The notes under the pieces: generated by a model
Seen by the model: the letters and a program-made list of their open reading frames with translations, nothing else
What the model was told of the DNA's origin: nothing
The model's database searches: none
Assembly: GCF_036971445.1 (NCBI RefSeq)
Contig: NC_091470.1
Coordinates: forward strand, 71,486,001 to 71,550,000
Reading direction: 5' to 3'
From: Narcine bancroftii
Taxonomy: Eukaryota
Length of the DNA stretch: 64,000 nt
Shown here: positions 4,503 through 62,962 of the stretch, one piece after another
How positions within the stretch are numbered: the first letter of the stretch is position 1
Layout: the number at the start of each line of letters is the position of its first letter
Made by a program: the position numbers and the translations under genes

Positions 4503-4710
4503 AAAGTCACACCTACTAAAACTACCACTGTGAGCACAGGTTCATACGATTCCTGTTGCAGCTAACCAATTTCCACAAGCTGCACATTACATGTCAAAGT
4601 GACTCATGAGCTGTGGTTTGGCCCCCTCTAGCTTAGCCCTTATCCTTAGTCCTTAACCCCCTTGTTCTCGATTTCTCATCATGAGAAATATTGTTCTTGT
4701 ATCTAACCCA

Positions 4711-5999
4711 AAGTTCCTCAACATGATTATCCAACTGCACGAAAACCAACAAGGTCGGGTCAGATACAGCAATGAGCTCTCTGAACCCTTCTCCATTAAC
4801 AATGGCGTGAAGCAAGGCTGTGTTCTCGCACCAACCCTCTTTTCAATCTTCTTCAGCATGATGCTGAACCAAGCCATGAAAGACCCCAACAATGAAGACG
4901 CTGTTTACATCCGGTACCGCACGGATGGCAGTCTCTTCAATCTGAGGCGCCTGCAAGCTCACACCAAGACACAAGAGAAACTTGTCCGTGAACTACTCTT
5001 TGCAGACGATGCCGCTTTAGTTGCCCATTCAGAGCCAGCTCTTCAGCGCTTGACGTCCTGCTTTGCGGAAACTGCCAAAATGTTTGGCCTGAAAGTCAGC
5101 CTGAAGAAAACTGAGGTCCTCCATCAGCCAGCTCCCCACCATGACTACCAGCCACCCCACATCTCCATCGGGCACACAAAACTCAAAATGGTCAATCAGT
5201 TTACCTATCTCGGCTGCACCATTTCATCAGATGCAAGGATCGACAATGAGATAGACAACAGACTCGCCAAGGCAAATAGCGCCTTTAGAAGACTACACAA
5301 AAGAGTCTGGAAAAACAACCAACTGAAAAACCTCACAAAGATAAGCGTATACAGAGCCGTTGTCATACCCACACTCCTGTTCGGCTCCGAATCATGGGTC
5401 CTCTACCGGCATCACCTACGGCTCCTAGAACGCTTCCACCAGCGTTGTCTCTGCTCCATCCTCAACATCCATTGGAGCGCTTTCATCCCTAACGTCGAAG
5501 TACTCGAGATGGCAGAGGTCGACAGCATCGAGTCCACGCTGCTGAAGATCCAGCTGCGCTGGATGGGTCACGTCTCCAGAATGGAGGACCATCGCCTTCC
5601 CAAGATCGTGTTATATGGCGAGCTCTCCACTGGCCACCGTGACAGAGGTGCACCAAAGAAAAGGTACAAGGACTGCCTAAAGAAATCTCTTGGTGCCTGC
5701 CACATTGACCACCGCCAGTGGGCTGATATCGCCTCAAACCGTGCATCTTGGCGCCTCACAGTTTGGCGGGCAGCAACCTCCTTTGAAGAAGACCGCAGAG
5801 CCCACCTCACTGACAAAAGGCAAAGGAGGAAAAACCCAACACCCAACCCCAACCAACCAATTTTCCCCTGCAACCGCTGCAACCGTGTCTGCCTGTCCCG
5901 CATCGGACTTGTCAGCCACAAACGAGCCTGCAGCTGACGTGGACTTTTTACCCCCTCCTTAAATCTTCGTCCGCGAAGCCAAGCCAAAGAAGAGAAAGA
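4711..5999 (+). mobile_element. 5'-truncated RTE-clade (BovB-like) LINE, RT and C-terminus in an open frame (ORF 4681-5937)
   Basis: GVKQGCVLAPTLF, ELLFADDAAL, FTYLG and a C-terminal CNRC...SH motif; AAG-rich tail; 10-bp TSD ATCTAACCCA at 4701-4710 and 6000-6009. Confidence 0.93.
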
Positions 6000-12386: not shown

Positions 12387-15300
12387 CTGGAATAGAAATC
12401 AACCAGATATTGCAATAAGGCTTCACAAAGGAGGTGCAACAAATTCAATGACACTAAGTAGGGCTTTTAAGAACACTGAATATACCAGTAAGGTGAGCTT
12501 AGGACTGCAACATCTCAGAGTAAACATTGTGAATTATGAAGATACTGTATCTCAAGAGACAAATGTGAATAACGAAGACAGCAAGTCATCTCCCGTCTCT
12601 CCAAGAAACAGTATGGAGTTTTTATAAACAAATATTCTTTCATAATTGTTAGTTCTTATAGCAACCATCCCTCACTCTGTCCTTAACTACAAGGATGTAC
12701 ATTTTGATTTGACAAGGAGACAGATTGGATCAGACAGAAGAAATAGAACATAGAAAACAGAGTATTTAATAATGCTTTAAGAACAAGTTGGCAGTTCCAA
12801 AATGCATTAGAGGTGAGAGAGGATCAAATGAATCTTAAAACACTCTTGATAAACAATCTTGATAAAGTCTTCATATTAGTATATTTGTAAAATCTACTAT
12901 TGTACAGGTTTAACGATGGGACTTTCAGGGTCTCATGGGCATCAATAGGCACATTATTTTAAAAATTGAAAGGTTTGACTAAACAGATTAGGAAAAATAA
13001 GTCACTTTTTTTTCCCAAATTTACCCTTTACTTCATTATATAAGATTTATAAAATTGGGCTTGGAAATCACAAATGAATTAATCAATTTAAATGATGAAG
13101 TGTGGCGGTACGCTATTAGGCAGGCGAATCTGCCCCGCTTGTCACGCACACAGCGGGGCAGCTGGCCAAAATGGCACTGTCGGGAGTTTCCTCCCGACCT
13201 CGGCACCGGGCTCAGAAGCCTGTGGTGACGTCGGGGGTCCCCAGCGTGGTTCTCAGCCAGGTCCGGCTGGGAGTACAAGACCAGCCAGGCAGCCTGCAAT
13301 AAATTAGTTTTGCTCACTGAACTCAACCCATCTGGTTGTGCAATCCTTCTGTTAGCAGTGTAGCCACCGCTACAATTGGTGACCCCAACAGGTTCAAACG
13401 TCTTTGAACCTGACATGAATGACCCTTCGATCAACGCTATAGACATCAAGCTTCCTGACTTCTGGGTTCAGGAGCTGGAGACCTGGTTCAGCCACGAAGA
13501 GGCTCAGTTTCACCTCTGCCAGATTTCATTGGATTCAACCAAGTTCTACCATGTGGCCACTGCCCTGGACCAGGCCATTGCCAAACAAACAAGTGCTGCA
13601 ACTCGTTCAGCACCCACCTGTGGAAAATAAGTATGGGACCATCAGGCGGGTGCTCACCAGCTCCCTCAGCCTCTCCAGGCACCAGCGTGCCACTTGGATG
13701 CTGCGCCTCAATGCCTTGGGGGACAGAACTCCAATCGAGTTGATGGACGAGATGTTCGAGCTCATGGGCGATCACACCAACTGCCCACTCTTCGAGCGCA
13801 TCTTCCTTGACCATCTGCCTGAAGACATCCGGACGTTGCTGTCCCAGGAGAGCTTCGTTGATCCTAGGAAGGTTGCTCAAAAGGTTCAGGAGCTATCGAA
13901 CAATTCCCGGAGGGCTCAGCAGTCCAGCAGGTTATGAGTCACGGGCATGACCACACCAAGCCTTACTCTAGCGCTGCGGTGGAACACCCGGCCACTGCAG
14001 GGGCCTCAAAGAGAATAGCCAGAAGCAAGCCATCCACTTCAGGCCTTGCTTCTTCCACCAGAGCTGGGGAGCCAGGGCTTGGAAGTGTCGTCAGCCCTAC
14101 TCGTTTCAGGGAAATGAGCAGGCCAGCCGCTGTTAATGGCTGCGGCGGCTGGCCAACAACACAACCTTCTCTACCTGTGAGATTCAGTCAGCGGCTGACA
14201 CTTCCTCTTCGACACTGAGGCCCAGACCAGCGTCATCCCGGCCATAGCCATCAAGACCCGGAACCGGCCTCGAGGACCTCCCCTCCATGCAGCCAATTCG
14301 ACGGAGATCCGAAAATATGGAGACAAAACCATCCACTTCCAGATCGGCCAGTGGAAGTTCTAGTGCAGGTTCACCATTTCGTCCCTCCCAACCGCTATCC
14401 TGGGGGTCGACTTCCTCCTCGCCCACAGAATTCTGGTCGACATTCGAGGTAGGCGACTGGTAGATGCCTATACTTTCCAATCTGTTCACCTCAACGCCTC
14501 CCACGCGGAGCAGCCGCAGATGGCCAGTCAGCACGCCCAAGGACGAATTTCAGTGTATCCTGGACGAGTTCCCGTCCCTCCTCAAGCTGTTCTCCGTCGC
14601 CTCATCACGCCATGGGGTGTTTCATTACATCCGCACCCAAGGCCCGCTGGTCCACGGCGAGGCACACCAGCTCCCGCTGGATAAGCTCCAGATAGCGAAG
14701 GAAGAGTTCTCCCATCTGCAGGAGCTGGGGTTCATTCGATGCTCCGACAGTCCTTGGGCCTCTCCACTTCACCTGGTCCCAAAAGCCTCCAGTGGCTGGC
14801 GCCCTTGCGGAGATTATCGATGGCTTAACGACACGACAGTACCTGACCGTAACCCGATCCCTCACATCCAGGACTTTGCGGCCAACCTGCATGGTGCGAG
14901 GGTATTCTCCAAGGTCGACCTGGTGCGCGGGTATCACCAAATCCCAGTGCACCCCGAGGACATACCCAAAACTGCTATCATCACTCCCTCCAGCTTGTTC
15001 GAGTTCCTACGCATGCCATTCGGGCTCAAGAACGCCGCCCAGACCTTCCAGCGTCTCATGGACACAGTGGGCAGGGATTTGAATTTCGTATTCATTTACC
15101 TGGACGACATCCTTGTCGCCAGCAGAAACCGGGCACAACACGTCTCACCTATACACCCTCTTCTCACAACTGGCCGACTTCAGCCTAATGATCAATCTGG
15201 CAAATTGCCAGTTCGGGAAAGAGTCCATGCAGATCCTGGGCCATACCATCACGGCCGAAGGAGCCACACCTGGTGCTACGAAGGTCGCTGCAGTCAGGGA

Positions 15301-18300
15301 GTTCCCACGCCCGGACAACCTCAAGGGGATACAAGAGTTTGGGGGTATGGTCAATTTCTATAACTGCTTCATTCCAGGCGCTGCGCACATCATGCAGCTG
15401 CTCTTTGCCCTCACTGCGGCCAAAGACAAGACACTCGCCTGGACTCCAGAGGCCAGCAGGGCATTCAAAGCCACTAAAGATGCCCTTGTGAAGGCTACAC
15501 TGCTCGTCCACCCACGCACCAACCTACATATGGCGCTCTCCATCGATACCTCTGCCACAGCCGTCGACGCCGTCCTGGAGCAGCAGGTGAACGGACAGTG
15601 GAAATCACTGGCATTCTTTAGCCGACTTCTTCGCCCGCCAGAGCGCAAGTATAGCGCTTTCGATCGTGAGTTGCTGGGCATGTACCTGGCGGTGTGTCAT
15701 TTCCGCTGTTTCTTGGAGGGGAGGCCTTTCACCATTTTTACCAACCACAAACCCCTCACTCGGGCACTCGCTATGGCAAGAGATCCCTGGTCAGCCCGCC
15801 AACAGCGTCACCTCTCCTTCGTGTCGAAGTTCACCACTGACAATTGGCACAAGGTGGGGAAAGACAACATGGTTGCCGACGCACTCTCACGACTGGCCAT
15901 TTGCGCGCTGACACCCAGCCTCGACTTCGACCAGCTCGCCCTGGACCAGAAGTCTGATGAGGAGACGCGGGCCTTCAGGACTACCATCACGGGCCTGTGG
16001 TTCCAGGACCTCCCAACTCCTCACGGTGAGGGTAGCGTCCTGTGCGATGTCTCCAGGGGCACCCCATGTCCAGTAGTTCCCCAGCAGTGGCACAGGCAAG
16101 TCTTCCACCATATCCATGACCTTTCCTACCCTTCCATCAGGTACACGGTCCATATGGTGGGAGAACGGTTCACCTAGCACGGGTTTCGGAAGCAGATTGC
16201 GGACTGGGCCAGAACCTGCACCCATTGCCAGCTTTCCAAGGTACACAGGGACACCAGAGCGCCCATACAATATTTTAAACGCGTCTGGGAACGGTTCAGC
16301 CATACACGTGGACATCGTCGGACCCTTACCCATTTCCAGAGGTAACCGTTACCTTTTCACAGTGGTAGACCGCACCACTCATTGGCCCGAGGCGATCCCG
16401 ATGCCAGATGCCTCCACAAACTCCTGCTCCCGAGCTATTTTGAATGGTTGGGTTGCCTGGTTCGGCGTCCTGAACCACCTCACCTGTGATCGGGGCGCCC
16501 AGTTCACCTCTGCGCTTTGGGCACAGCTCGCCAACAGGCTGGTGATCGAGTTATATCACACCACGGCCTATCACCCACAGGCCAATGGGCTAGTCGAGTG
16601 ATTGCACCGCCACCTTAAGTCGGCACTGATGGCCTGCCTCACCGGCCCTGACTGGGTGGACGAGCTGCCTTGGGTGCTCCTGGGCATCCGCTTGACACCC
16701 AAAGAAGATCTGCAGGCGTCATCACCCGAGCTGGTCTACGATGCACTGCTAGCCCTACCCGGTGAGTTCATCAGTGCATCTCATAACCCCCAGGAGTCAC
16801 CACACGGTCTACTTCCCTGCTTCCGGCCCAGTTGGACTCCTTCACACCGCCTTGCCATCCAGACACGGCACACGGTCCTCTTATGTCCCCAGCGAGCTGT
16901 ATTTCACAGAGTATGTTCTTAATCAGGCAGGGCCCGTCCACAGCACCTCTACAATGACCATTCGAAGGGCCGTACAAAGTCGTCCAGCATTTAGGATCCA
17001 CTTTCACACTGGACATCGGTGGTAAGAGGGATCTGTTTACTGTGGACAGGTTAAAGCCAGCCCACCTCGACCTCACCGAGCCAGTAGTTCTGGCCCAACC
17101 CAAGAAGCGAGGCCGCCTGGCAAAAAAAGACATGGGGGGGGGGAAGGTACACCATTAGGCAGGCGAACCAGCTCCGCTTGTCACGCACGCGGAGCGGCAG
17201 CCGGCCAAAATGGCACCATCGGGGGGGTTTCCTCCCGACCTTGGCACCGGGCACCCACGTGATGCCCCAGTGATTTCGGGGCACCCCAGCGCTGTTCTCA
17301 GCCAGGTCTGGCCTGGGATTATAAGACCAGCCAGGCAGCCTGCAATAAATCAGTTTTGCTCATTGATCTCAATCCGTCTAATTGTGCAATCCTTCGGTTA
17401 GCAGTGTAGCCATCGCTACAGAAGATCACTATGAATCCAATGTTTCAAATTCACCTTAATACTTCACTCACACTGCATACCAATTATTCATCAGGATACC
17501 ACAGAAGTACAATTTATTATCATATACATTTTTGAACCCAGTATGATTCAGGTGATATTCATCTTCATTAATTTTATCACAGCGTTGGAAGTCAAGTTTT
17601 AGCTCTGTTTACTCACCCGTCTCATCTCAGGATCATTAGTGTTGACTACTTTTGGCAACAAGAGGATGATGAGCAATGGAAGAACCATCATCATTACCTG
17701 TGGAGATGTCACAAATAGAAACCTTAAAAAGTCACCATGAAACAAGTATCCATGAGCTTTCAGCGCAATCTGAAGGAAACGATCTGGTACACCATCAGCA
17801 TTTATAGTTTGAAATAAGAACAGATAATATTGTAATCAAAGAATACACAAGTAGAACAAAGATGGGAAAAGACAGTTGCTAAAGACTGACAAGTGTGTAA
17901 TTTCCTCTTGCCCTGTTTTCTTGAATTTGACGATTCAACAAAAAAAAGTGACCATTGGCTGAACCAATACCATTTATGTTTCTTTAAATTCCATTTAAAG
18001 AAGCATGGGTTGGGTATTTTCAACACTGACTTTTACTGCGACTCATCCAAAATAAGAGACTTGAAAACATCTTTTCATTCTCAGAGGTTCAAAACAAAAC
18101 CAATGTGAATTTTTGAGTTAACTATAGAAAACAACAACCACCACAATCCCAATGCCCTTGTAAACATCCTATGGAGGTCTGTGTCAAAGATGGTGCCTCT
18201 CATGCTCAGCAGCAGAGCCCAAGGAGTTGTGGACTCCAGATGACCAGAGGGGCACAGGGCACAAGAACGGGAGAACATTCCAAATGAGATGCCTGGGAGA

Positions 18301-34900: not shown

Positions 34901-37900
34901 CAGCACACTTTTTCTTCTTAATGATGCTCCAAACAGTTGGTTTTGGTTATCCTAAGGTTTGGGCACTGTTTTATTCTTGTTTTTAAGCCTCATAATGGCT
35001 TCTTTGACTTTCATTGGCACAACTCTGGTCCTCAAGTAGAAAGATGGCAATTTCAGACTTCAAAGGTGATCAAAAGCTTAGAAGCAAGCCAAGCTCTCTT
35101 ATACCGGCACCAAAGAAGTAATTCAAGATACCTGAATATTCAGAAATACCTGTGAAGCCAAATGTCCCAAGCATTAGGGTGCCCTGAAATGGGGGAACTA
35201 TGTATAATCAGAACTGTAATTTCTACACGGTCAAACCAAACGGTGTACAAATAACCTTGAATAAAATCTGGGTGTGCACTTAAAAATCACATGTAAATTG
35301 ATTGATTACAAATTTAAAACTGTGGAGCACAGGGGCAAATAAAGGGATAAAGTGTCTTTGTCCCAAACATTATGGAGGGCACTGTATATCTCAATCAACA
35401 TACAAATTGTCTTTGCAACCACTGTGAATTCTCCTCCTCCAGTTTTCTAATTCTTAATCCAAAAAGATATAACAAATGCAGAGTAATGCTGTTTTTTTTT
35501 AGAATTTCAGTTATACTTACTCTTCAAACCTGCTTCTTAGTAATTCTTGTACTAATGGTAACAGATCAACACAACAACCCATGGAGATGCTTTCTTTTTC
35601 CTCTTCCAGACTATAACCAAAACAAAATAAAAATTAATTGTAAAAACCACTAGCAACCAATTGGCAAATCTTATTATGGTATGTCACATGTTACCTCTTC
35701 GTCAGTATAGGTAGACAATCTGCAACAACAGCAGTGTCCCGTATCCTACAGGTAACAGAAAGATTCAATGTTATATACAAATACCTCAAGCACTAAAACA
35801 CCAACTAAAATAATTACATTGATATAAAATAATGCACTACTTCTTTAACTTTGGATCTTCCAATTACATATTGCATTCATAACAATAATAATGAAAGTTT
35901 ATTGTGTAATTATGTAAATGTATTAGTGGAGAGGAAGCCATCCAGTAATGAAGATGAAATATGATGCAGGAAAATTACCTGACCAAGTAAGCCACCAGCT
36001 CACTTGCACTTTTTTGCCAGAAAGTCAGGGCTACACTAAGCCTTAGGTTTCTACCAAATAGCACTTGTGTCATAGTAGCATGATCTTTGGAAATCTGTAA
36101 GATTAATAGAATCAAACATTAATATTGAGTCAGGACAAAAAATGGCAACTTTTACACTTTTGGCCCAGAAATTATTGATTGGTAAAGTTCGTCACTTACA
36201 CTGTCCTTGAAGAAAACTCCCAACAAAGATCTAGCAATGGCAGTGATAAATATTTCCTTTTATCTCACAACTTTTGCTACCGGGTTTCATACAAGTTGAG
36301 CTATTTTCTCTATCACCAAGATCATTTACAAGTCGGTTACATTCCATCTCTAATCCTGCCTCAACTTACTTGCTGCTCAAACCTTCCATCTCTCATTTAT
36401 CTACAAATCTTTTCTATTCTAATCTTCTTGTTAATATGCCTATCCTTCTAACTTGTGAATTTCAGATGACCCAACAGCTTGTATAATGTATGGAGAAAAA
36501 AAAGTGAGGGCCACAACTAATAAATCTGGTTGTGAATTGTGCTAACATCGTAACAAGAAACAGATTAACATGGAACACAGCAGTGATGACACACAAGTTT
36601 CAGGAACTTCATTCATTACATTATCGTGTGCACCCATCATTTAATTAAGTGATACAGCACAGCCCACAAACATGTGCCATCCAGATAACCAATTAACCTT
36701 CTCACCTCATACATCTGAAATCTGTAAGGAAACCAGAATACCTGAAGAAAACATATGCAGACAGAGGGAGAATGTACAAAGACCTTACAAACAGTATCAG
36801 ATTATTCTGTAATGAACCCAGTAATTAGGTCTTTGCAAAGCTTATTCTGTAATCAAAACTAAGTTTTTCTGTAATTATGTCCATTAAGTCTACAAAACCT
36901 ATACCAAAATCATGTTCAGGAGATCAGCTTTAAATGGTCTACTCATGTCAAACACTTAATAAATCTACTGTTGTGTCGAACACCAATCCTGCACTGTCTT
37001 TCTCTTTTCTCCTTCAACAGCAATCCCCCATCACACATTTTTGATGCGCATTGACTTGAGCATCAAATTACATTTAAATTACATATAAAATTCATGCTCT
37101 TGCCCCTCCCACATCCTTTTCCAGGCCTATAATCCTCCCAAAAATCTGCATTGCTCAAAAAATGTCTTTGTTCTTCATTATTCTGCATCATTCCACCATA
37201 GATCATGTCTTGGTGCATAGGACAAAGCTTTCGGATTCTCTTTATCAAGCAGAAAAATAAACCGAAACTCACTTTTGTTTAACCAAGCATTTAGACACAT
37301 CCCAAATGTCCTTCATCTTTCGATACTTAATTTTATTAATTAAAGCTTCTCATTTAAAGCAGCACCATTACCATAAAGATGTTTTGCATGCATGTCTCTC
37401 ACTTAAAATCAGTAAGCCATGCACATCTGTGACATATGAATTAAGAGGAGTTTGCCACTCAGCCTCTCAAGTCAGCACCACCATCCAAGATAATAAGCAA
37501 ATCTGAATGAAACCTCAACACTGCATTCACATCTACCAATGGAAATCTTTGATTCCTTCTTGTCGATAGTCTATCCAATTCTGCATTAAAAATATTCAAG
37601 ACAGCTACCACCACTCTTGTAGTTCTTATTTTATTTCCATCTTAAATGACTGACTCTTCATTTTCAAAAAGGATCCCTATTTCTCAATTCTCCCACAAGA
37701 GAAAACATTCTCTCTTCATCCCGACAGACCCCTTATGATTTTATATTTCAAACAGCACACCTCACTTATAGGTTCCAGTGATTATAAAATTAGCCTGTGC
37801 TACCTTCCTTCAAGAACAACCATGCTCAGTTAACGCAGCCACCGCCCTTTCAACAGATGTGTCTGATGCGGACATAGGGGGCGCACTGCAGCAGTATGTT

Positions 37901-40900
37901 GATGGACAATGGAAGCCTTGGCATTCTTCAGCTGCCACCTCCATGAGGCGGAGAAAAGATACAGCACCTTTGATAAAGAGCTCCTAGTCATATATTTGTC
38001 CATCCGTCACTTCCGTTACTTTTTGGAATGCAGACACTTCATCATGTTCTCAGACTATAAACCCTTAACCTTCGCGTTTCCAAAGGGGTCGGAGGCCTGG
38101 TCAGATCGACATAATGGCAGTTATCCTACATTTTGGAATTCTCTACCAGAATAATGCACATTTCTGGAAAAGACAATGTAGTAGCATTTTCCTGCTCAGT
38201 TGCGCTCAAAGCATCAGCTAGGGACCATGTATTAACTCGGCGGCACTCGTCACTGCCCAAGCACAAAACAGTAAGATGGAGTCGTATCACACCTTGATAA
38301 CCCACTACAATGGAAGGATGTGTAAATCGATGCCAATGACCAGCTGCTCTTTTGTGATGTGTCAACAGGACATCCACGGCCAGTGGTTCCAACTTCGTGG
38401 AGATGTTGCATTTTTGATTCTGTTCATGGCCTTTCTCATCCATCCATCAGATCGACCATTTGTTTGATTTCAGACAAATTTGTTTGGCATGGTCTGAAGA
38501 AAGATGTCACGCAAATGGCCAGACCTTGTGTAGCTTGTCAAAAAGTCAAAATCCATCGGGGGGGGGGGGGGGGGGGAGGTAAGAAGCTTATGTCAGCACC
38601 AGTGTTGACCAGGAAACACCTGCCTGACAAGGAGTCCCAGAAACCCACAGGGTGGCCAGCATCGATGGCCCTCTTCAACCCATCGCTGACAATAGTAGCA
38701 TAGCTATCCTGGGGTATTAACTTGCCTCTCCGCTAGTCTTGATCTCGCAGGTGGCTGTTTGTGGTGCTCGCTGATGTGGCCTACGACAGTGCTGGTGTCC
38801 TCCTTTGCTTTCCAGAGCTTGTCCGCCTGGACCGCACCCTCCAAGAGTTGCTGAAGTCCATGAGCATGGGTTGGATATCCTCGGGCAGCTGCTCCAGAAA
38901 GATCTGCTCAAAGAGCAGACAAGGTATATGGCATCTTGCTTATTAGGGTGGATGGGGGCCTGTTCCCCAATCCATCCAAATGTAGCAATCAAGCGGCACA
39001 CTCGCACCAGGAGAGCCCAAAAGTGAGGGTTAACAGCTCTTTGAGGGTCGCATATTTGCCTCACTCTGGAGGCTGCCGTAGGAAGTCTACAACCCATGCC
39101 ACTGTGTCCTGATCGAGGGCATTCACGACCTAGAAGGAGTGGGTATCGGTAGCAGCGATGTGTCGAAGCTGGAACTGAGCCTTAGCCTGCTCAACCATAT
39201 GTGGCTATGACACCCAAAACATTGGGAGCCTGAGTGAGACCGTGTGGTCGCAGGTTTCGCTTGATATGTCATCTTCAGGTCAAACTGCCAGTTGGACCTG
39301 TTGGGGTCACCAATGTAGCGGACATGCTACGCAAGCATGGAGAAGAATGACATGCACACCAAAGCCTTGGAAAAGAAGACTGGTTTATTGCTCTGGACAT
39401 CACACTCAAATGGGCCCCAGGCACTGACGCCAGGACCCCGTGTCATTGGATCGCCGGCCTGGGATTGGCTGGCATTCCCGCCAGAGTTCCCCATCTTCCC
39501 ACTGTGTGGGAGGTCACCTGGGATGACGGCCGGTGTCATCTCCAGCTCTGCACGGTCGCCACATTCGTCGTCTATTTTGTGGGCCAGTCTGTGTCTCTGT
39601 CCGTGGGCCATTACACGCCAACTGTTTCCAATGCATTAATATTCTTCCTTCAGTAAGGATTTCCAAATGTCATTTTATCAGTATCATTATAGCTTTAAAA
39701 CCTTAATCGTATTCAGTTCTATTAGCAAAATATTAGTCTAGTGTAAATTAGATGCTAGGACGCCTAATCCATTATATTTTAGTACTTTGCAGACTCTCAT
39801 CATACAGTCATGCACCACATAACGTTTGTTCAGGCAACGTCCAACTGCATATATGTCTGTGATCCCATAAGGTTATAACAGAGTTCAGAAATCCCGATCG
39901 GAGAATGGTACGTAGCAGACATTATTTTAATGTGAACTTTCCCTACTTACAAATAAAAAGTTTATAGTATTAATCTACTTAACCCATATATTAAATTTGC
40001 CAGAAACAGTACATTAGCTGAAATACAGCTGTATATGTTCAGTATCTTGGCTAACTAGTTAGTACAGGTACACTACAGCATCCTATATAGCTTTGCTAAG
40101 TATATAATTTGCACAGCGTCCAAATCACATTACATCCTATTTCACAGAACGTATGATTGCACTTCTTTTACTTTTTCTCCCTGCCATAATGGAAGATGAC
40201 ACATTTTCTTTCAAATTCAATTTGCCAGATTTCTGTCCACTGACATAACTCATCAATAACTGCCTTTAGTTTCTTTATTCAGTCACATTAATTGTGCTAA
40301 GTTGAGCCCCCAGCATTGATCACTGTGCTGCCACCATTTGCTACAATTCCATTTATACACAATTCTCAAATCTCCATTATCTTGCAAATCTCACTGGATT
40401 GTATGAATAGCAATATTCACTGTTATGGATCACCAATACAAGATGGTTTTGGATTAAATACTGGAATACCCCTGGTAGATCAGAAGTGTGTGTTTCATTA
40501 TAACTAATTAAAGACCTAAAGTTCCTAAATCAAAATAAGCCATGATCATACTGCAAAATGAATGGGCCTCAGTTATATGCACAGATCTTTAATGGTGGGA
40601 AGTCAATTTGGCAAAAATGGTATTAACTTTACAAGTAGATGTAAGATGACCTTTGTAATTCATTGGTAAATTGCAGTAATTTCTCAAAAACTGGGCACAC
40701 TTCAGGAAGAATATCAAGAGATACTGCACCTTCCCTAAGCCTTTACTGGAATGGAACTGTAATGAAGAACTTATGTTTCCTGGAAAGAGAAGGGGGGGGG
40801 GGGGTGAGATTTTATTTCCTTTTAAACACATACAAATTCTTTACTTGAAAAATCATGGGTGTAGATTCACTCATAATCTTGTAAACAAAAATTGGAACTA

Positions 40901-55257: not shown

Positions 55258-55664
55258 CTACTGACATGGTCTTTGCCCTCAGACAGCTCCAAGAAAAGTG
55301 CAGAGAACAAAACAAAGGACTCTACATCACCTTTGTTGACCTCCCCAAAGCCTTCGACACCGTGAGCAGGAAAGGGCTTTGGCAAATACTAGAGCGCATC
55401 GGATGTCCCCCAAAGTTCCTCAACATGATTATCCAACTGCACGAAAACCAACAAGGTCGGGTCAGATACAGCAATGAGCTCTCTGAACCCTTCTCCATTA
55501 ACAATGGCGTGAAGCAAGGCTGTGTTCTCGCACCAACCCTCTTTTCAATCTTCTTCAGCATGATGCTGAACCAAGCCATGAAAGACCCCAACAATGAAGA
55601 CGCTGTTTACATCCGGTACCGCACGGATGGCAGTCTCTTCAATCTGAGGCGCCTGCAAGCTCAC
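55258..55664 (+). mobile_element. Internal RTE RT fragment with a TSD but no 3' tail
   Basis: DMVFALRQLQEKCREQ..FVDL.KAFDTV; by eye identical to 4710-4963 over the overlap; flanked by AACACTGCAA at 55248-55257 and 55665-55674. Confidence 0.88.
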
Positions 55665-56579
55665 AACACTGCAAAGATAATACTGTTAAATCTAACATTG
55701 GTTGGCTCTTTGGGCAGAGGATTCCATTATTTGTTTTCAGGACAGCACAGAGTCACAGGATTAGTGCAAAAGAGATTCACTACACGTATTCCTGTATAAG
55801 AGAGTTGTTACATGAAGAGTGCCATTGTACAGTTTTCAAAAAAGTGATGTTATTGAGTCAAGATTCTGATCAGGACAGGCAAGGCAGGTATCAATCAGCT
55901 GGTAAGCAGTAAAACTGGGGCAGCAGTTTCAGGATAAAGTACAGTATCAACTACTTCAAAGACAAATTAAAAAATATATAATTGTGTGAATGGAAATTTC
56001 TGCATCAGAAGATCCTGAATGCAGAAAAATGATTTAAAAAAACCCCAAAGTTGCTGCCACAATAATAGTGAAGATTTATGAAACTAAGGCCTATTACTGT
56101 CCATACAACATTAATACAGAAACGCGAATCCAGATTCAAATGCTGCTATTTTCATGCAAAACTGTATTGGTTTTGTGCTGCATCGTTTTGTAAACGATAC
56201 ATTTTATATCGCAGTTCGAAGTAAATTGCAAGTTCTCAAATAACAGAATAACTCGTAAAATCGCTTTGACAGCATCCTTTTCACAAGTTCCCTTACGGCC
56301 ACTCCCAAGCAAACAAAATGGATTCAAACGAGGGCAGATTTGCCGTCGATGAGGCGGAATTTCACAATTTTTTGAGATTTACCCCCTACTTTAAAAAAAA
56401 ACCCAGAGCAACTTGCCAGATTTGAGTAGCTTTGGCTGCCAGCTCTGGATGCCCACAACACGTTTTAAATTGATTCGAAGATGTTGTAAACGATTTGAAT
56501 CTCCATAAAGCTTATTGGATAAAATCCTGTTAAAATTTAGGGCCAGCCTCGCTAATCCCCACTCCCCAATGTGTCAAGT

Positions 56580-56900: not shown

Positions 56901-57494
56901 GCCTCCACCCAAAATGGCTGGAGAAACGTAGCTCATCACGCTGAGTTCTTATGTAACAAAGGTACCAAATTAACCTCCTTTTTCCGCCTTCTATTTGCAA
57001 GTCCAAATCAACTTTATGTTGTTGGATCAAATGGGTGTAAAACAAAGGGTTAAAAAGAACAAACCATGAAGGTTAACATCAAATTTGCACATTTGGCTTT
57101 GGCAGGTTCTTCATTTGTTTTGGCCATCTCATATCCTTCATGTAATCCCTCTGAATTTTGGTCTCAGTGAAAGGGAAGGCAGTAAACAAAATGGTGAAAT
57201 CTGAACCAGAATTAGTCTGGTTGTTGATTAAATTGTTGCCTCAGCGTCAGCAACATATTGTTATCGTAGATTATTGTAATATTGAGTACAGAATGAATCA
57301 GGAAATTGACAGTCCGTGTAATAGATTCATAGCAAATTTAGGAGGCTAATTTACATAACTGCTGGGTTGTCAAATAACATAGACGAGGAATTTACAGAAT
57401 GTCCACAACATGTTGAGAAATCAACACCAGAAAAAAAATCGCTTTTAGATCTTGCCTAATGAGAAGGAATCTATTTATAGTTTCGGGGGAAGTT

Positions 57495-60400
57495 AGGAGA
57501 ACAAGACCCAGTCCTCATGAGGGCTCAGTAGTGGAGAGGGTCAAGAACTTCAAATTCCTGGGTGTCAACATTTCCGAGGATCTTTCCTGGAGCCTCCATT
57601 TTGATGTAATTACAAAGAAAGCTCACCAGCGGCTATACTTTGTGAGGTGTCTGAGGAGGTTCAGTATGTCACCAAAGACTCATAAACTTCTACATGAGTA
57701 CCATGGAGAGCATTCTAGCTGGTTGCACCACTGCCTGGTATGGAGGCACCAACTCTTAGGACAAGAATAAACTCCAGAGGGTTGTTCACTCGGCCTGCGA
57801 CATCACAGGCACTAGACTTCACTCTATTGAGGACAGCTACATGAGGTGGTGTCTTAAAAAAGCAGCCACATTTCTCAAAGACTCCCACCACCCAGGGCAT
57901 GCCCTTTTCACTCTGCTACCATTGAGAAAAAGGTACAGGAGCCTAAAGGTGATGTGGTGATACAACCACTATTATAGCTGCACTCGTAATGTCAGCCAGC
58001 TGGCAGCTGTCAACCACCGGCCCATATAAAGTCTCGAGCCGGTCCCTTCCTAAATCAGTCGGGCATGTGAAACCAGAGGTTACAGAGACCTGGTGATCAA
58101 CTTTAAGCTGATTAAAGCCTGTAGTACAATCTTCTCAAGTTTTGTGTTTGTTTGCTGCACCACAGCGCATCACAATTTAATCAGCTTAAAATTTTAACGA
58201 CCATGGAGAGATTCCTCGCCCTTGAGAGACTGGACATAAACCCTTAACACCTGGACACTCTAGCATACTTAGAGATCTGAAAGCATACAATCGAGGTGAT
58301 CATCCACATTCAAGCGGAGGTCATCAATACGAACCAGAAGAAGCTCATGGTTCTATTCACCAAGCTGGGCTCCTGAGCTTTCCAGGCCATTAGAATGCAC
58401 AGACTTTGAATCTGCAATGGCCACCCTGGAAGGTGTGTACTGGCCCCCAACAAATATATTCTACAGCTGGTACCTGCTCAGCAACAGAGTACAGCAGCCA
58501 GGTGAGACAGCCAACACTTACCTGGGTGCTGTGCGAGAGCTAGCATGCCCATGCACCATTGGGGAAGTGGAGCAACTCTTCCGAGATGCATTCGTGCAAG
58601 GACTATGGTCAAGGGCAACTCAACAGAGACTGTTGGAGGAGAACAATGCCTCCCTCATCAGGGTCATGGAAGTGGTCCACTCCCTGGATGCTGCAGCTCA
58701 CCATGTGGAGGTCTTTGATGCTTGCCTCCCCCACTCACCAGCCTGACTAACACTGACAACAGCAACAGTTGCCAAAGGGCCCCACAAGGAAGAGACGATT
58801 GCCGCCAACAACACCAGGCACCGCCGTAGGTACTGAGGGTCCCGGTGTGGGTCAGACAGGCGCTCTCGTAAGAACTGCCCTGCGAGGAACTTGCACTGCT
58901 CTTTATGTGGATGAAAGGCCACTTTGCTAAAGAGTACCTCTCCAAACACACCGGGAGCACTGCAGCCCTCCGTGACCAGCCGGGAGTGCCTCCTGACCTC
59001 TGGGCACCTCCATGCCATTACCCTGCCCATTGCTTCTGCCTGCACTGATGTCACTTCCGGCCCAGCTGTCGAACTACACTACTGCCTTGTGCTCACCTTG
59101 GGCGCCATCATCTTTCGCCACCGAACCTCTGCCCTCACAGATGACGTCACTTCCAATGACATAACTTCCAGCCGAACATCTGCCGCAACGGTGACATAAC
59201 TTCCGGCTGGGCTGCCAGGCTGAGCTGACGCTGTGAGCGTACCCTTGGTGCTGCCATCATGGGCCAGCTGACCCCCATCCACACTGACCCGAGCTGCACC
59301 AGCACACCGACCAGATGTCATGATAAACATGTGCGTGCACAGAACCGCGCACTGGTCGCACTCCACGCTCCAAAGGCCATCCAACATCTGCTGCTCATCA
59401 CAACCGTTGGGGAACAGTGACTCAAACCCTGAGGTGGTCCTAGCATCCACCAAGCTGACAGAGGACATTCCCCATGGACCAGGGTGCTCAATAATGGACA
59501 TTGCTGTCAATGGGAAGGTAACAAAATGCCTGTTTGATAGCGGTTGTACTGAGAGCTTTGTGCACCCAATGGTGGTCCAGACAATGAAATTCAAAGTGTA
59601 CCCAACAAACCTCCTCTTCGCTTTTGCATCCCAGGACCACTCGAACATGGCACAGGGGTGCTGCTCAGTGAACTTGACAGTCAGGGGGGAGACTTGGTCA
59701 TGCCCAAGCTCTGTGCTCCAGTTGTCCTGGGACTAGATTTCCAGTGTCACCTCCACAGCCTCACTCTTGCCTTCGTTAGCCCACTCCCCCCACTCACTGT
59801 CCACAACACAAAGACCAGTGAACATTCCAAATCCATCGGCAGACTCTCCACCCTTTGGGTATCTCCGCCATTCCTTTTCAATTACCTAACGCTGGACTGC
59901 AAACCAATAGTGGCCAAAAGCAGGTGCTACTGCACAGCCGAAAGGGGAAATGACTCCTGGCGGAGGGAGTTATAGAACCCAGCAACAACCCCTGGACAGC
60001 CCAGGTCTTAGTAGTAAAAGGGGGCAGCAAGATGAGAATGGTCATCAATTATAGCCAGACCATCAACCAGTACACCCAGCTAGGCGCCTACCCACTGCAT
60101 TGCATTGCTGACATGGTCAATGAGATTGACCTGAAGTCAGCCTACCACCTGTTCCTCATTCACGCCCAGGACAAACCTTTTACTGCCTTTGAGGCAGATG
60201 GACATCTCTACCAGTTCCATCAGGTCCTGTTTTGGGTCTCCTTTTATTAGCAGGAGATGGACCATATAGTAGACTGGCACAAACTAAAAGTGACCTTCCT
60301 GTACCTAGACAATGTCACCATCTGCAGCCATGACAAGCAAGACCATAATGCCAACCTGGAGGGGTTTCTCCAGACAGCAGAGATGCTAAACCTCACCTAT

Positions 60401-62962
60401 AACAGGGAGGAGTGTATGTCCAGCACCACCTTCCTCACCACTGGCCACCCCAGACCCGTCTGACCTTCAAACGGTCCTGCCCTGCAATGGTCCCAGTGAC
60501 AAAGGTGACCGTTGGACTGCTTGAACTTGTAAATACCCTAGAACACCCACCCCCCGACTCTTTTAAGAAGGGGGTGAATGTGGTGATACAATCACTACAA
60601 AAGCCACAATCCTACCAGCCTGGGTTGCATCATAAAACATGGTCCCATTGGTCCCATCCCCGAATGCATGCATCCTCTAATGGAACTGCCCCTCTCTCAT
60701 ACTCTCAAGGCAGGTGCCTAGAGCTTTTTTCGTATTACTCCTAGTGGGTCCCCACTTCTCCAACAAGGTCCATCCACTGGCCAGTCCACCACCTTTCCCC
60801 TCCCCGCAGAGGCACAAGTGGCCTTCTCCCACATCAGACAAGATATCGCCATTGCCACGATGCATGCTTTGGATGAGACCACCCGATTCCAGGTGGATTG
60901 TGATGCCTCTGCCACCTTTAATCAAGGGGGCAGACCCTGGTCTTTTTCTCCAGGACCCTTCACAGTTCAGAGCTCATGCACTCTGCCATCGAAAAGGAGG
61001 CCCAGGCGATTGTGGAAGCAGTCTGCCACTGGTGCCACTACCTGGCAGGCAGGAGGTTTACCCTTCTCACTGACCAGCGAACAGTGGCATTCATGTTCAG
61101 CACCACCCACAGAGGCAAGATCAAAAATGACAAGATCTTACGCTGGAGAGTCGAGCTGGTCACCTTCAGCTATAGTATCCAGTATAAGCCAGAGGAACTC
61201 AATGACTCCCCCGATGCCCTGTCATGGACCTGCGCCAGTGCGCAGTCCGAGCAACTGCATGACACCATCTGCCACACAGGTGTCATGTGCCTGTACCACT
61301 TCATTAAGTCCTGAAACCTCCCCTTCACCGTCCAAGAAGTCCAGACCTGCAGGGTCTATGCAGAGTGCAAAACACGCTTCTTCCGCCCACCACATACCAA
61401 CATGGTGAAGTCCACTCAGTCCTTCAAGGGACCACTGCCTTCCACAAAAAAGAATGAATATCCCCATTTTCCCTTCACCATCTCTTGCCTTGACACCTCC
61501 ACTGGCTCCGTTATCAAGGCACTGGCGCAGATCTTCACCATGTTTGGATACCTGGCATTCAACCATAGCAACCGGGGGTCCAGTTTCATGAGTGAGGAGC
61601 TACACCAGTACCTGGCAGTGTGAGACATTGCTTCTAGTCGTATGAATAGTTACAGCCCCAGGGGCAACGGGCAGGTTGAACGCAAAAATGGGGTAATCTG
61701 GAAGACACTCCTCTTGGCCCTGAGGTCGAACGGATGGTCCATCAACTGTTGGTAAGAGGCCCTCCCCTAGGTGCTTCACACCAAACAGTTGTTCTTGTGC
61801 ACACTACCAATCAGACCCCTCACAAATGCCTTTTCTCTTTTCCTAGGAAATCAGCAACTGGCATCTCTCTGCCAGCGTGGCTGGTGTCTTCAGGACCGAT
61901 GCTCCTCTGTAAACACGTGAGGACCCACCAGTCCAACCCCCTGATTGAGCAGGTGCACCTCCTCCATGCAAACCCAAACTACGCTACACAAGGTACCCCA
62001 ATGGACGGGAGGACACTGCCTCGACCAGGGATCTGGCATCAGCAGTGACCCAGCCCCCTCCTACCTCGGCCACCCCTGACCCATCCAGGACCTCCCCCCC
62101 CCACCCGGGATGGTGTCTACCTACTGCCTCTCCACAGGTCCCCACCCACCGCAGATCTGCCTTGCACCTACACCCCCACTCCGTCAGGCACCATCCTGGT
62201 TACACCACTGGCCGCCCTGACCACCCTGGACTCGTCTGACCTTCAAGCAGCCATTGACCAGGAGCCTGCCCTGCAACGGTCCCAGTGACAAAGGCAACCA
62301 TCGGACTGCTTGAACTTGTAAATACCCTAGATCACCCCCACTCCCCCACCAGACTCTTTTAAGAAGGGGATGAATGTAGTGATACAACCATTATTATAGC
62401 CACACTCCTACCGGCCTACTGCAGGGGGAAACCACTATACCTGTAGGTAGGCAACCTGGGATGCTTGCCCCACCATGCTGGCTGTCAATCACTGGCCCAT
62501 ATAAAGACTCAAGCCGGCCCCTTCCTAAATCAGTCGGTCACGTGGAACCAGAGACTGCAGAGGCCTGGTGTTCAACTTTAAGCTGATTAAAGCCTATAGT
62601 ACAATCTTCTTGAATTTTGTGTTTGTTTGCTGCACCACAGCACATCACAGACGAGCACTCAACGGCCCAAGGTCAGCTTCTTCCCCACTGCTGTCAGATT
62701 CCTGAATGATCCATGAACCACACACACTGCATTAAACCAAAGACACAGCCTTATGTTATATACACTATTATTTTTATTTTTATAGTTCTTTGGCTTGGCT
62801 TCGCGGACGAAGATTTATGGAGGGGGTAAAAGTCCACGTCAGCTGCAGGCTTGTTTGTGGCTGACAAGTCCGATGCGGGACAGGCAGACACGGTTGTAAG
62901 ATGTTTGCTCTATGATGCTGCCACAAAACACTGAATTTCATGATAATAAATTCTGATTCTGT
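57495..62962 (+). mobile_element. Rex1/Babar 3' fragment (57495-57952 and 62650-62962) hosting a Gypsy element and an RTE stub (about 62786-62896, minus)
   Basis: VERVKNFKFLGVNISEDLSW; RYRSLK|TSTQRPKVSFFPTAVR continues across the insertion; gattctgattct-type tail. Confidence 0.8.
57953..62649 (+). mobile_element. Full-length decayed Ty3/Gypsy LTR retrotransposon with a non-tRNA PBS
   Basis: 5'LTR 57953-58174 and 3'LTR 62375-62649 (TG..CA); PPT 62361-62374; degenerate 5-bp TSD GGTGA/GACGA; gag ATG at 58203 (QQPGE motif); protease CLFDSG; RT IDLKSAYH and YLDNVTI; RNase H HSAIEKEAQAIVEAV; integrase FKGPLPS, HSNRGSSFMS and PRGNGQVER. Confidence 0.92.

Follow-up and report, generated by a model that had tools for sequence, protein, structure and literature searches.

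A chromodomain-less Gypsy clade that likely primes its minus strand with an arm of its own LTR

A clade of Gypsy elements lacking a chromodomain was found to carry, after the 5' LTR, a PBS complementary to an arm of the LTR itself, and likely primes its minus strand with the arm of its own 5' LTR after a cut at the 3' end of this arm. When covariation between the PBS and the R motif was checked, as an earlier note on this DNA had proposed, pairing was found to covary across about 20 families and inside families, which is inexplicable by a fixed host RNA and thus supports self-priming well. What the sequences show directly is the duplex, conserved and covarying, together with a 2-nt spacer, no TGG and a position apart from sushi-like elements; where the RNA starts, that it is cut and by which enzyme are what we infer.

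Pairing of the LTR and PBS in the window element

The element lies in the window (the whole 64-kb stretch of DNA that was analyzed), where its left flank is a LINE-like 3' end (ORF 57417-57770, with a match to PF09004). Its features, followed by those of the two tRNA-primed Gypsy elements of the window, are listed below.

57953-62649, plus strand: decayed Gypsy element with TG...CA LTRs, PPT and short TSD
57948..57952, plus strand: left TSD, GGTGA, with 3 of 5 bases shared with the right copy
57953..58174, plus strand: 5' LTR (TG...CA), with a U3 about 53 nt shorter than in the 3' LTR
58025..58030, plus strand: predicted TATA box, TATAAA
58055..58060, plus strand: Inr-like TCAGTC, with the predicted start at 58057, 32 nt past the TATA
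58102..58116, plus strand: putative self-primer arm, its 3' end being the poly(A) hexamer ATTAAA (58111-58116); predicted cut after 58115
58116..58131, plus strand: A-GCC motif directly 3' of the predicted cut; the RCCT..AGGY hairpin is absent in this copy
~58140..58155, plus strand: GT-rich downstream element in U5
58175..58176, plus strand: 2-nt spacer past the CA of the LTR, mirrored by AA ahead of TG at the PPT end
58177..58190, plus strand: PBS, complementary to the LTR arm and without TGG
58204..62288, plus strand: decayed gag-PR-RT-RH-IN coding region with many stops and frameshifts; RT motif YLDN
60441..60621, plus strand: internal duplicate of the 3' end of the element (PPT and U3 start) between RT and RH, 79% to 62217-62417
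62361..62374, plus strand: PPT, ending GAA before the TG of the 3' LTR
62375..62649, plus strand: 3' LTR with unchanged arm at 62577-62591 (18-nt form 62574-62591)
62650..62654, plus strand: right TSD, GACGA
~13107-17420, plus strand: tRNA-primed Gypsy element, CA-AT-TGGTGACCCC, TGG PBS
~38550-39600, minus strand: second tRNA-primed Gypsy element, rearranged, with CA-T-TGGTGACCCC near 39300 and an RH-IN piece at 37830-38540 (plus strand)

The arms at 58099-58116 and 58176-58193 are 18 nt in length, 94% complementary (17/18) and 59 nt apart. Their perfect core of 15 nt is the exact reverse complement between 58176-58190 and 58102-58116 that the earlier note had described. The same arm was detected in the 3' LTR at 62574-62591, where it is also complementary to the PBS and, in agreement with the original description, unchanged although the two LTRs differ (89% identity over 169 nt). 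In 20,000 dinucleotide shuffles of the LTR, matches to the 25 nt that follow it reached at most 12 nt, on a single occasion, and a match of 15 nt was never obtained. The folding stability of the whole 161-nt region was unremarkable (z -1.4); thus, the signal is the single arm-PBS duplex. The TATA box, Inr-like TCAGTC, ATTAAA and GT-rich tract were all found to be present in the sequence, and the coding region was split into short frames, as expected of a copy that had been called coding-dead; domains PR and RH can still be recognized in it. Both other Gypsy elements of the window, which we take to be CsRN1-like based on a gag motif, were confirmed to have a TGG PBS in contrast to the element under study. 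By ARAGORN, no tRNA was found in the 64-kb window.

The edge of the duplex required revision. Pairing does extend to 58176, but the one-base spacer proposed at first was not upheld, as the relatives favor a PBS starting at 58177, with 2 nt of spacer ahead of it. The tRNA-primed neighbor at 13376 likewise has a 2-nt spacer.

Covariation of the duplex across the clade

The clade was surveyed by an integrase search, which returned 68 polyproteins, the named ones from rays, catshark, the sea anemone Nematostella and butterfly; the host is thus probably a cartilaginous fish. With gag, a word-index search returned 0 relatives and a full HMMER scan 1226, and contigs could not be scanned with the gag alignment because of its variability. 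An alignment of 37 polyproteins was used to obtain 88 loci from metagenome and MAG contigs, of which 30 had a gag start and 28 had enough upstream DNA; no relative was found in the viral contigs searched. By this approach, a duplex score of at least 10 at the LTR edge was detected in 23 of the 28 assessable distant loci. The other five scored below 10, with a duplex that by eye appeared decayed in L085, L106 and L113 and with no remnant in L088 and L093. Eight contigs filed in bacterial MAGs (L131-L138) encode this same animal-type retrotransposon and are probably host contamination.

Covariation was assessed in 22 representatives (17 from contigs, families A and B, and three sister subfamilies), which were chosen for having the duplex and anchored on CA plus 2 nt. 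Of 242 positions, 236 were paired. At the variable positions 5-11, 150 of 154 were paired compared to a permuted mean of 84.8 and a maximum of 110 in 10,000 permutations, a result that shows covariation and provides no p-value for function, since the set was pre-selected for the duplex and the permutation ignores relatedness. The representatives had 21 distinct PBS 11-mers, and none of the 22 started with TGG. Judged by these comparisons, the feature is considered real, clade-wide and under selection; the covariation indicates that the pairing matters, which is not the same as proof of priming.

Family A, that of the window copy, was collected by a DNA search of its own genome. Scores were obtained for 40 of the 2298 candidates, and 30 were fetched, the window copy included. 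All 15 positions were paired in 10 of the 30 copies and at least 13 of 15 in 26, and a PBS starting with TGG, which the earlier note had regarded as evidence against self-priming if found in family members, was present in 0/30. A loose pattern that left eight positions open per side gave control and real matches in about equal number (81 vs 64); it served solely for selecting, by eye, sixteen further loci with family-A flanks. In the sister subfamilies L212-L214, L217 and L211, arm and PBS were found to have changed together, with 15/15 positions paired and differing cores in L212, L213, L214 and L217. The lower variation of the arm (3.4%) and PBS (4.5%) compared to 7-11% nearby was set aside, both being without CpG. 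At L031 (G000:C1:73334500-73343000), the LTR-PBS-gag of a family A element is closely preceded by an integrase of family B, representing nested or chimeric elements.

Family B was reached through an integrase and has an LTR unrelated to that of family A and a gag ~22-48% identical in local matches. The same junction was nonetheless detected in 14 of 20 fetched loci, with AATAAA replacing ATTAAA and the PBS changed to match. Among 714 family B copies that matched a pattern with the flanks alone fixed, the arm carried T>C in 18 and the PBS A>G in 13, and both changes occurred together in 4 copies compared to 0.33 expected (p=1.8e-4), although these four double changes could be one event in a tree that is star-like. 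C was present in both LTRs of 2/3 readable doubles and of none of the 6 readable arm-only copies (11 fetched); thus, the doubles were inherited. A search for poly(A)-tailed retrocopies to map the 3' end of family B returned 0 matches and was uninformative. The LTRs of family B (L040 and others) also contain a second inverted repeat of 9 bp, through which the poly(A) hexamer is paired in the 5' and 3' LTR alike.

Matched changes were also observed between close copies. L054, which is ~98-99% identical to four siblings (about 1.1% difference, with 36-48 mismatches per pair), differs from them by a matched transversion pair (G>T / C>A), with the arm change in both LTRs, and a similar matched difference was found for L101 and L105. 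Retroviral tRNA primers are known to be copied into the PBS. Matched changes within families would be expected if the primer is copied into the PBS here as well, and selection alone would also be a possible cause. In L055, both LTR arms carry the same mismatch and the PBS is unchanged, as expected of an intermediate one generation before compensation.

Priming geometry, poly(A) signal and alternative explanations

The register of the pairing at the LTR edge was found to be nearly fixed. Pairing with the LTR begins at the second base past CA in 20 of the 22 representatives and at the third in L062 and L102, and the first base is unpaired in all 22. At the left end, AA precedes TG in the window copy, in family B and in 9 of the 17 loci where an AA-demanding pattern could be tied to the LTR start. 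The 2-nt spacer likely puts the 3' end of the primer after AA, one base inside the hexamer and just before A-RCC. At this junction motif, RCC is present in 19/22 representatives, and the motif opens a small RCCT..AGGY hairpin in 11/22. The loop between arm and PBS spans 40-68 nt in 21/22, and the gag ATG is located 13-44 nt past the PBS start.

By analogy with Tf1, the hairpin would fold during RNA synthesis and RNase H would cut after the terminal AA of the arm, just before the conserved A-RCC. The paired end of 11-18 nt would then prime a short strong-stop DNA, which would jump via the ~15-25 nt of R between the cut and the poly(A) site. For the window family alone, a capped leader of ~45 nt is predicted to stay on the primer, and masking of the poly(A) hexamer in the 5' LTR is predicted as an added advantage of the duplex.

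The proposal of the earlier note that the element is self-primed is supported by the covariation, and its further proposal, that the primer comes from inside R, fits part of the family as a prediction. In raw counts with no chance baseline, a TATA-like box was detected in 19 of 28 parsed family-A-type copies (of 46 loci) and an Inr-like motif 28-33 nt after the TATA in 17 of these 28, at 32-64 nt ahead of the arm. L057 differs, with its TATA ~30 nt ahead of the arm, which is the classic Tf1 geometry and leaves no room for a leader. Most other relatives had no TATA within 110 nt. A leader on an internal primer may thus not be general.

The arm ends in a canonical hexamer in 16/22 representatives. 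In the other six, the arm is without one: a canonical hexamer is located 27 nt downstream in L051 and 6 nt downstream in L052, and the remaining four are without a detected hexamer. The downstream position in L051 and L052 means that a cut is needed, and the placement of the hexamer across the representatives means that the arm is not simply the RNA 3' end and that no poly(A) switch is required. The RNA 3' end, which had been raised as a second option for the primer, is therefore disfavored.

A related possibility is that self-priming makes use of the arm in the 3' LTR, as the RNA's own 3' end or on a second packaged RNA, with the leader providing homology for strand transfer. The identity of the arm in the 3' LTR, the predicted leader of 32-64 nt in family-A-type copies and the hexamer at the end of the arm in 16/22 representatives are consistent with this possibility. 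By contrast, only 59 nt separate the PBS from the 5' arm, which should thus pair before the 3' arm at a distance of 4.4 kb. RNA cleavage normally occurs 10-30 nt past the poly(A) hexamer, which would leave the RNA end off the PBS, and neither the downstream hexamers of L051 and L052 nor the TATA position of L057, which leaves no leader, would be compatible. Priming from the 3' LTR is thus considered unlikely.

About equally improbable is that the duplex is merely regulatory, hiding the 5' poly(A) signal or gating gag translation, and that another primer is used. HIV-1 has a poly(A) hairpin that hides its 5' poly(A) signal. By predicted folding, the hexamer was less accessible with the PBS in 16/16 representatives with a hexamer in the arm; for the window copy, the unpaired value was ~0.05 with the PBS compared to 0.6 without. 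In family B and L054 the hexamer was predicted to be paired whether the PBS was present or absent (for family B, 0.08 unpaired when absent). This fold result follows from the duplex itself and does not lend independent support, but a regulatory role would also be in keeping with the gag ATG 13-44 nt past the PBS start. Arguing against it, pairing is kept in the 6/22 representatives without a canonical hexamer inside, it starts at a fixed 1-2 nt after CA as expected for a primer, and no other primer site was found at the LTR edge. The poly(A) switch suggested by the earlier note is, in the same way, predicted by folding for the window family but not obligatory in view of these six.

It is also conceivable, but very unlikely, that DNA synthesis generates the mirror copy as a by-product, by fold-back or template switch at the linear cDNA end, and rewrites it from the LTR each cycle, with no role in priming. 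Matched changes between copies as similar as L054 and its siblings would likewise result from such a process. It would leave minus-strand priming unexplained and does not account for the fixed register or for the conserved A-RCC (19/22). Finally, the primer could be derived from the host, as a tRNA, a piece of one or another small RNA, with the LTR match a coincidence. Host priming of this kind is usual in most Gypsy elements and applies to the other two of the window. It is highly improbable here, as TGG starts 0/22 of the sites, the 21 different 11-mers each match their own LTR, and a chance match is expected in <1 in 20,000 for the window copy.

Relationship to known elements

The clade is Ty3/Gypsy (Metaviridae), with TG...CA LTRs, PPT, short TSD and the order gag-PR-RT-RH-IN, and the best PDB match of relative P0014 was Ty3 Gag-Pol (1e-56). 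Neither the chromodomain PF00385 nor PF24626 (SH3_Tf2-1) was detected in any of 37 polyproteins, domains that are listed for most of the fish sushi-like proteins used as control. The RT-RH of the clade was 31-35% identical to that of fish sushi-like proteins and branched apart from them with 100/100 support in a tree of 19 proteins. When loci were added (40 rows, none dropped), the clade was separate from sushi-like, Gmr1-like and CsRN1-like elements, with families A and B beside the ray and catshark proteins; support is quoted from the 19-protein tree, as labels on the re-rooting path of the 40-row tree may be displaced. The trees included 6-10 fish chromodomain elements for comparison, and Tf1, Cigr-1 and Mag were not among the rows. 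Thus, placement of the RT relative to sushi, which had been proposed as a check, set the clade apart from fish chromodomain elements, in a tree without Tf1.

Like the clade, Tf1/Tf2 of S. pombe and Tj1 of S. japonicus have no tRNA PBS and have a site after the 5' LTR that pairs with an LTR segment. In these elements and in Tf1/sushi chromoviruses, the paired segment is described as cut off to serve as primer in the available text of PMC10085805, PMC4600332 and PMC5341516, and Tf1 is described as needing two flanking duplexes around the primer duplex (PMC10085805, in the portion available). For the clade, two such flanking duplexes of the Tf1 pretzel were no better than those of permuted partners (4521 and 1258 of 5000) by a simple energy test that could miss short helices. 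The clade differs from Tf1/sushi in having no chromodomain, no three-duplex pretzel and an RT that is often YxDN. Its arm also usually ends in a poly(A) hexamer and, in the window family, is predicted ~45 nt inside R, whereas the Tf1 primer is the RNA 5' end. From these sequence comparisons, the clade is regarded as Tf1-like in priming but not as Tf1/sushi.

Self-priming of the plant elements Tcn1 (Gypsy) and TAR/Houba/Osr-1 (copia) has been inferred from LTR-PBS complementarity of at least 10 nt, according to the accessible part of PMC6317226. Tcn1 is a chromovirus and TAR a copia element, and no link to a poly(A) signal was found in that part of PMC6317226. The plant self-primers show that the trait arose more than once. 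Skipper of Dictyostelium, the fungal GalEa copia elements and the bivalve TRIMs are without TGG, and unconventional priming has been proposed for them (PMC5006619, PMC6934838, in the sections available). By contrast to the clade, Skipper has a polypyrimidine tract without an LTR complement, and GalEa and the TRIMs have a hairpin within the internal region (same sections of PMC5006619 and PMC6934838).

Two CCHC arrays were found in 8 of 9 relative proteins examined (the ninth being without gag), with IN last and no chromodomain. Cigr-1 is a compact element with a single ORF of ~4.2 kb. Its markers, as given in the accessible part of PMC2774666 supplement 3, are two CCHC arrays, IN after RH, loss of GPY/F, no chromodomain and no env; these fit the clade, but as a match by markers alone, which other clades share, the likeness is a lead only.

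No account of the PBS of the clade was found in the open PMC and bioRxiv text covered by our search, a scope that excludes Repbase, GyDB and subscription papers, and two surveys of mollusc and annelid clades never mention a PBS in their main text. In the available portions of this literature, self-priming is tied to Tf1/sushi, Tcn1 and the plant TAR copia elements (PMC3601003, PMC6934838, PMC6317226, PMC6238403, PMC8556966, PMC4600332, PMC2774666, PMC10085805, PMC5341516, PMC5006619), and animal self-priming to Tf1/sushi chromoviruses so far. Self-priming by a separate and widespread clade would, if true, mean that tRNA independence arose again. The clade also bears on whether hairpin priming is ancestral, as has been speculated (PMC3601003, in the part available). 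Such elements would be expected to escape silencing by tRNA 3' fragments and programs for LTR detection that demand a tRNA PBS would overlook them or rank them low. Exact, testable predictions for how an RT recognizes and cuts its primer without the Tf1 pretzel are provided by the covarying duplex, fixed register and natural YxDN. We entertain only tentatively, and with more doubt than confidence, the broader proposal of an animal-wide clade with priming independent of Tf1 in origin, in which the primer would come from inside R via a cut through the hexamer, the same duplex would silence the 5' poly(A) site, the PBS would be rewritten by plus-strand copying of the primer and thereby stay matched to the arm, and the RT would mostly be YxDN.

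The RT active site was YxDN in 46 of 65 readable polyproteins and YxDD in 19, with 3 unread (of 68, P0003-P0070); in the window copy, the motif is YLDN at 60305-60316. YxDN was also found in young-looking copies with LTRs 99-100% identical (L051, L054). A chromovirus set had 42 DD, 0 DN and 24 unread. Members with YLDD also self-pair; thus, YxDN and the self-priming duplex are not strictly linked. The corresponding change in Ty3, D214N, is reported as active in vitro and lethal for transposition (PMC5371799), and D211N of Ty1 as lethal for transposition (PMC2148107), each in the text available. No paper on YLDN together with reverse transcriptase and retrotransposon was found in an open PMC/bioRxiv search.

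Other elements were observed in the course of this work. L182, L184, L186 and L188, which we presume to be Gmr1-like, are abundant in G000 and have IN before RT and the PBS TAATTTGG after the LTR, and L181 is a decayed chromovirus. In the window, two 260-nt stretches at 4707-4966 and 55409-55668 are 100% identical at a distance of 50.7 kb and resemble a piece of a recently active LINE RT.
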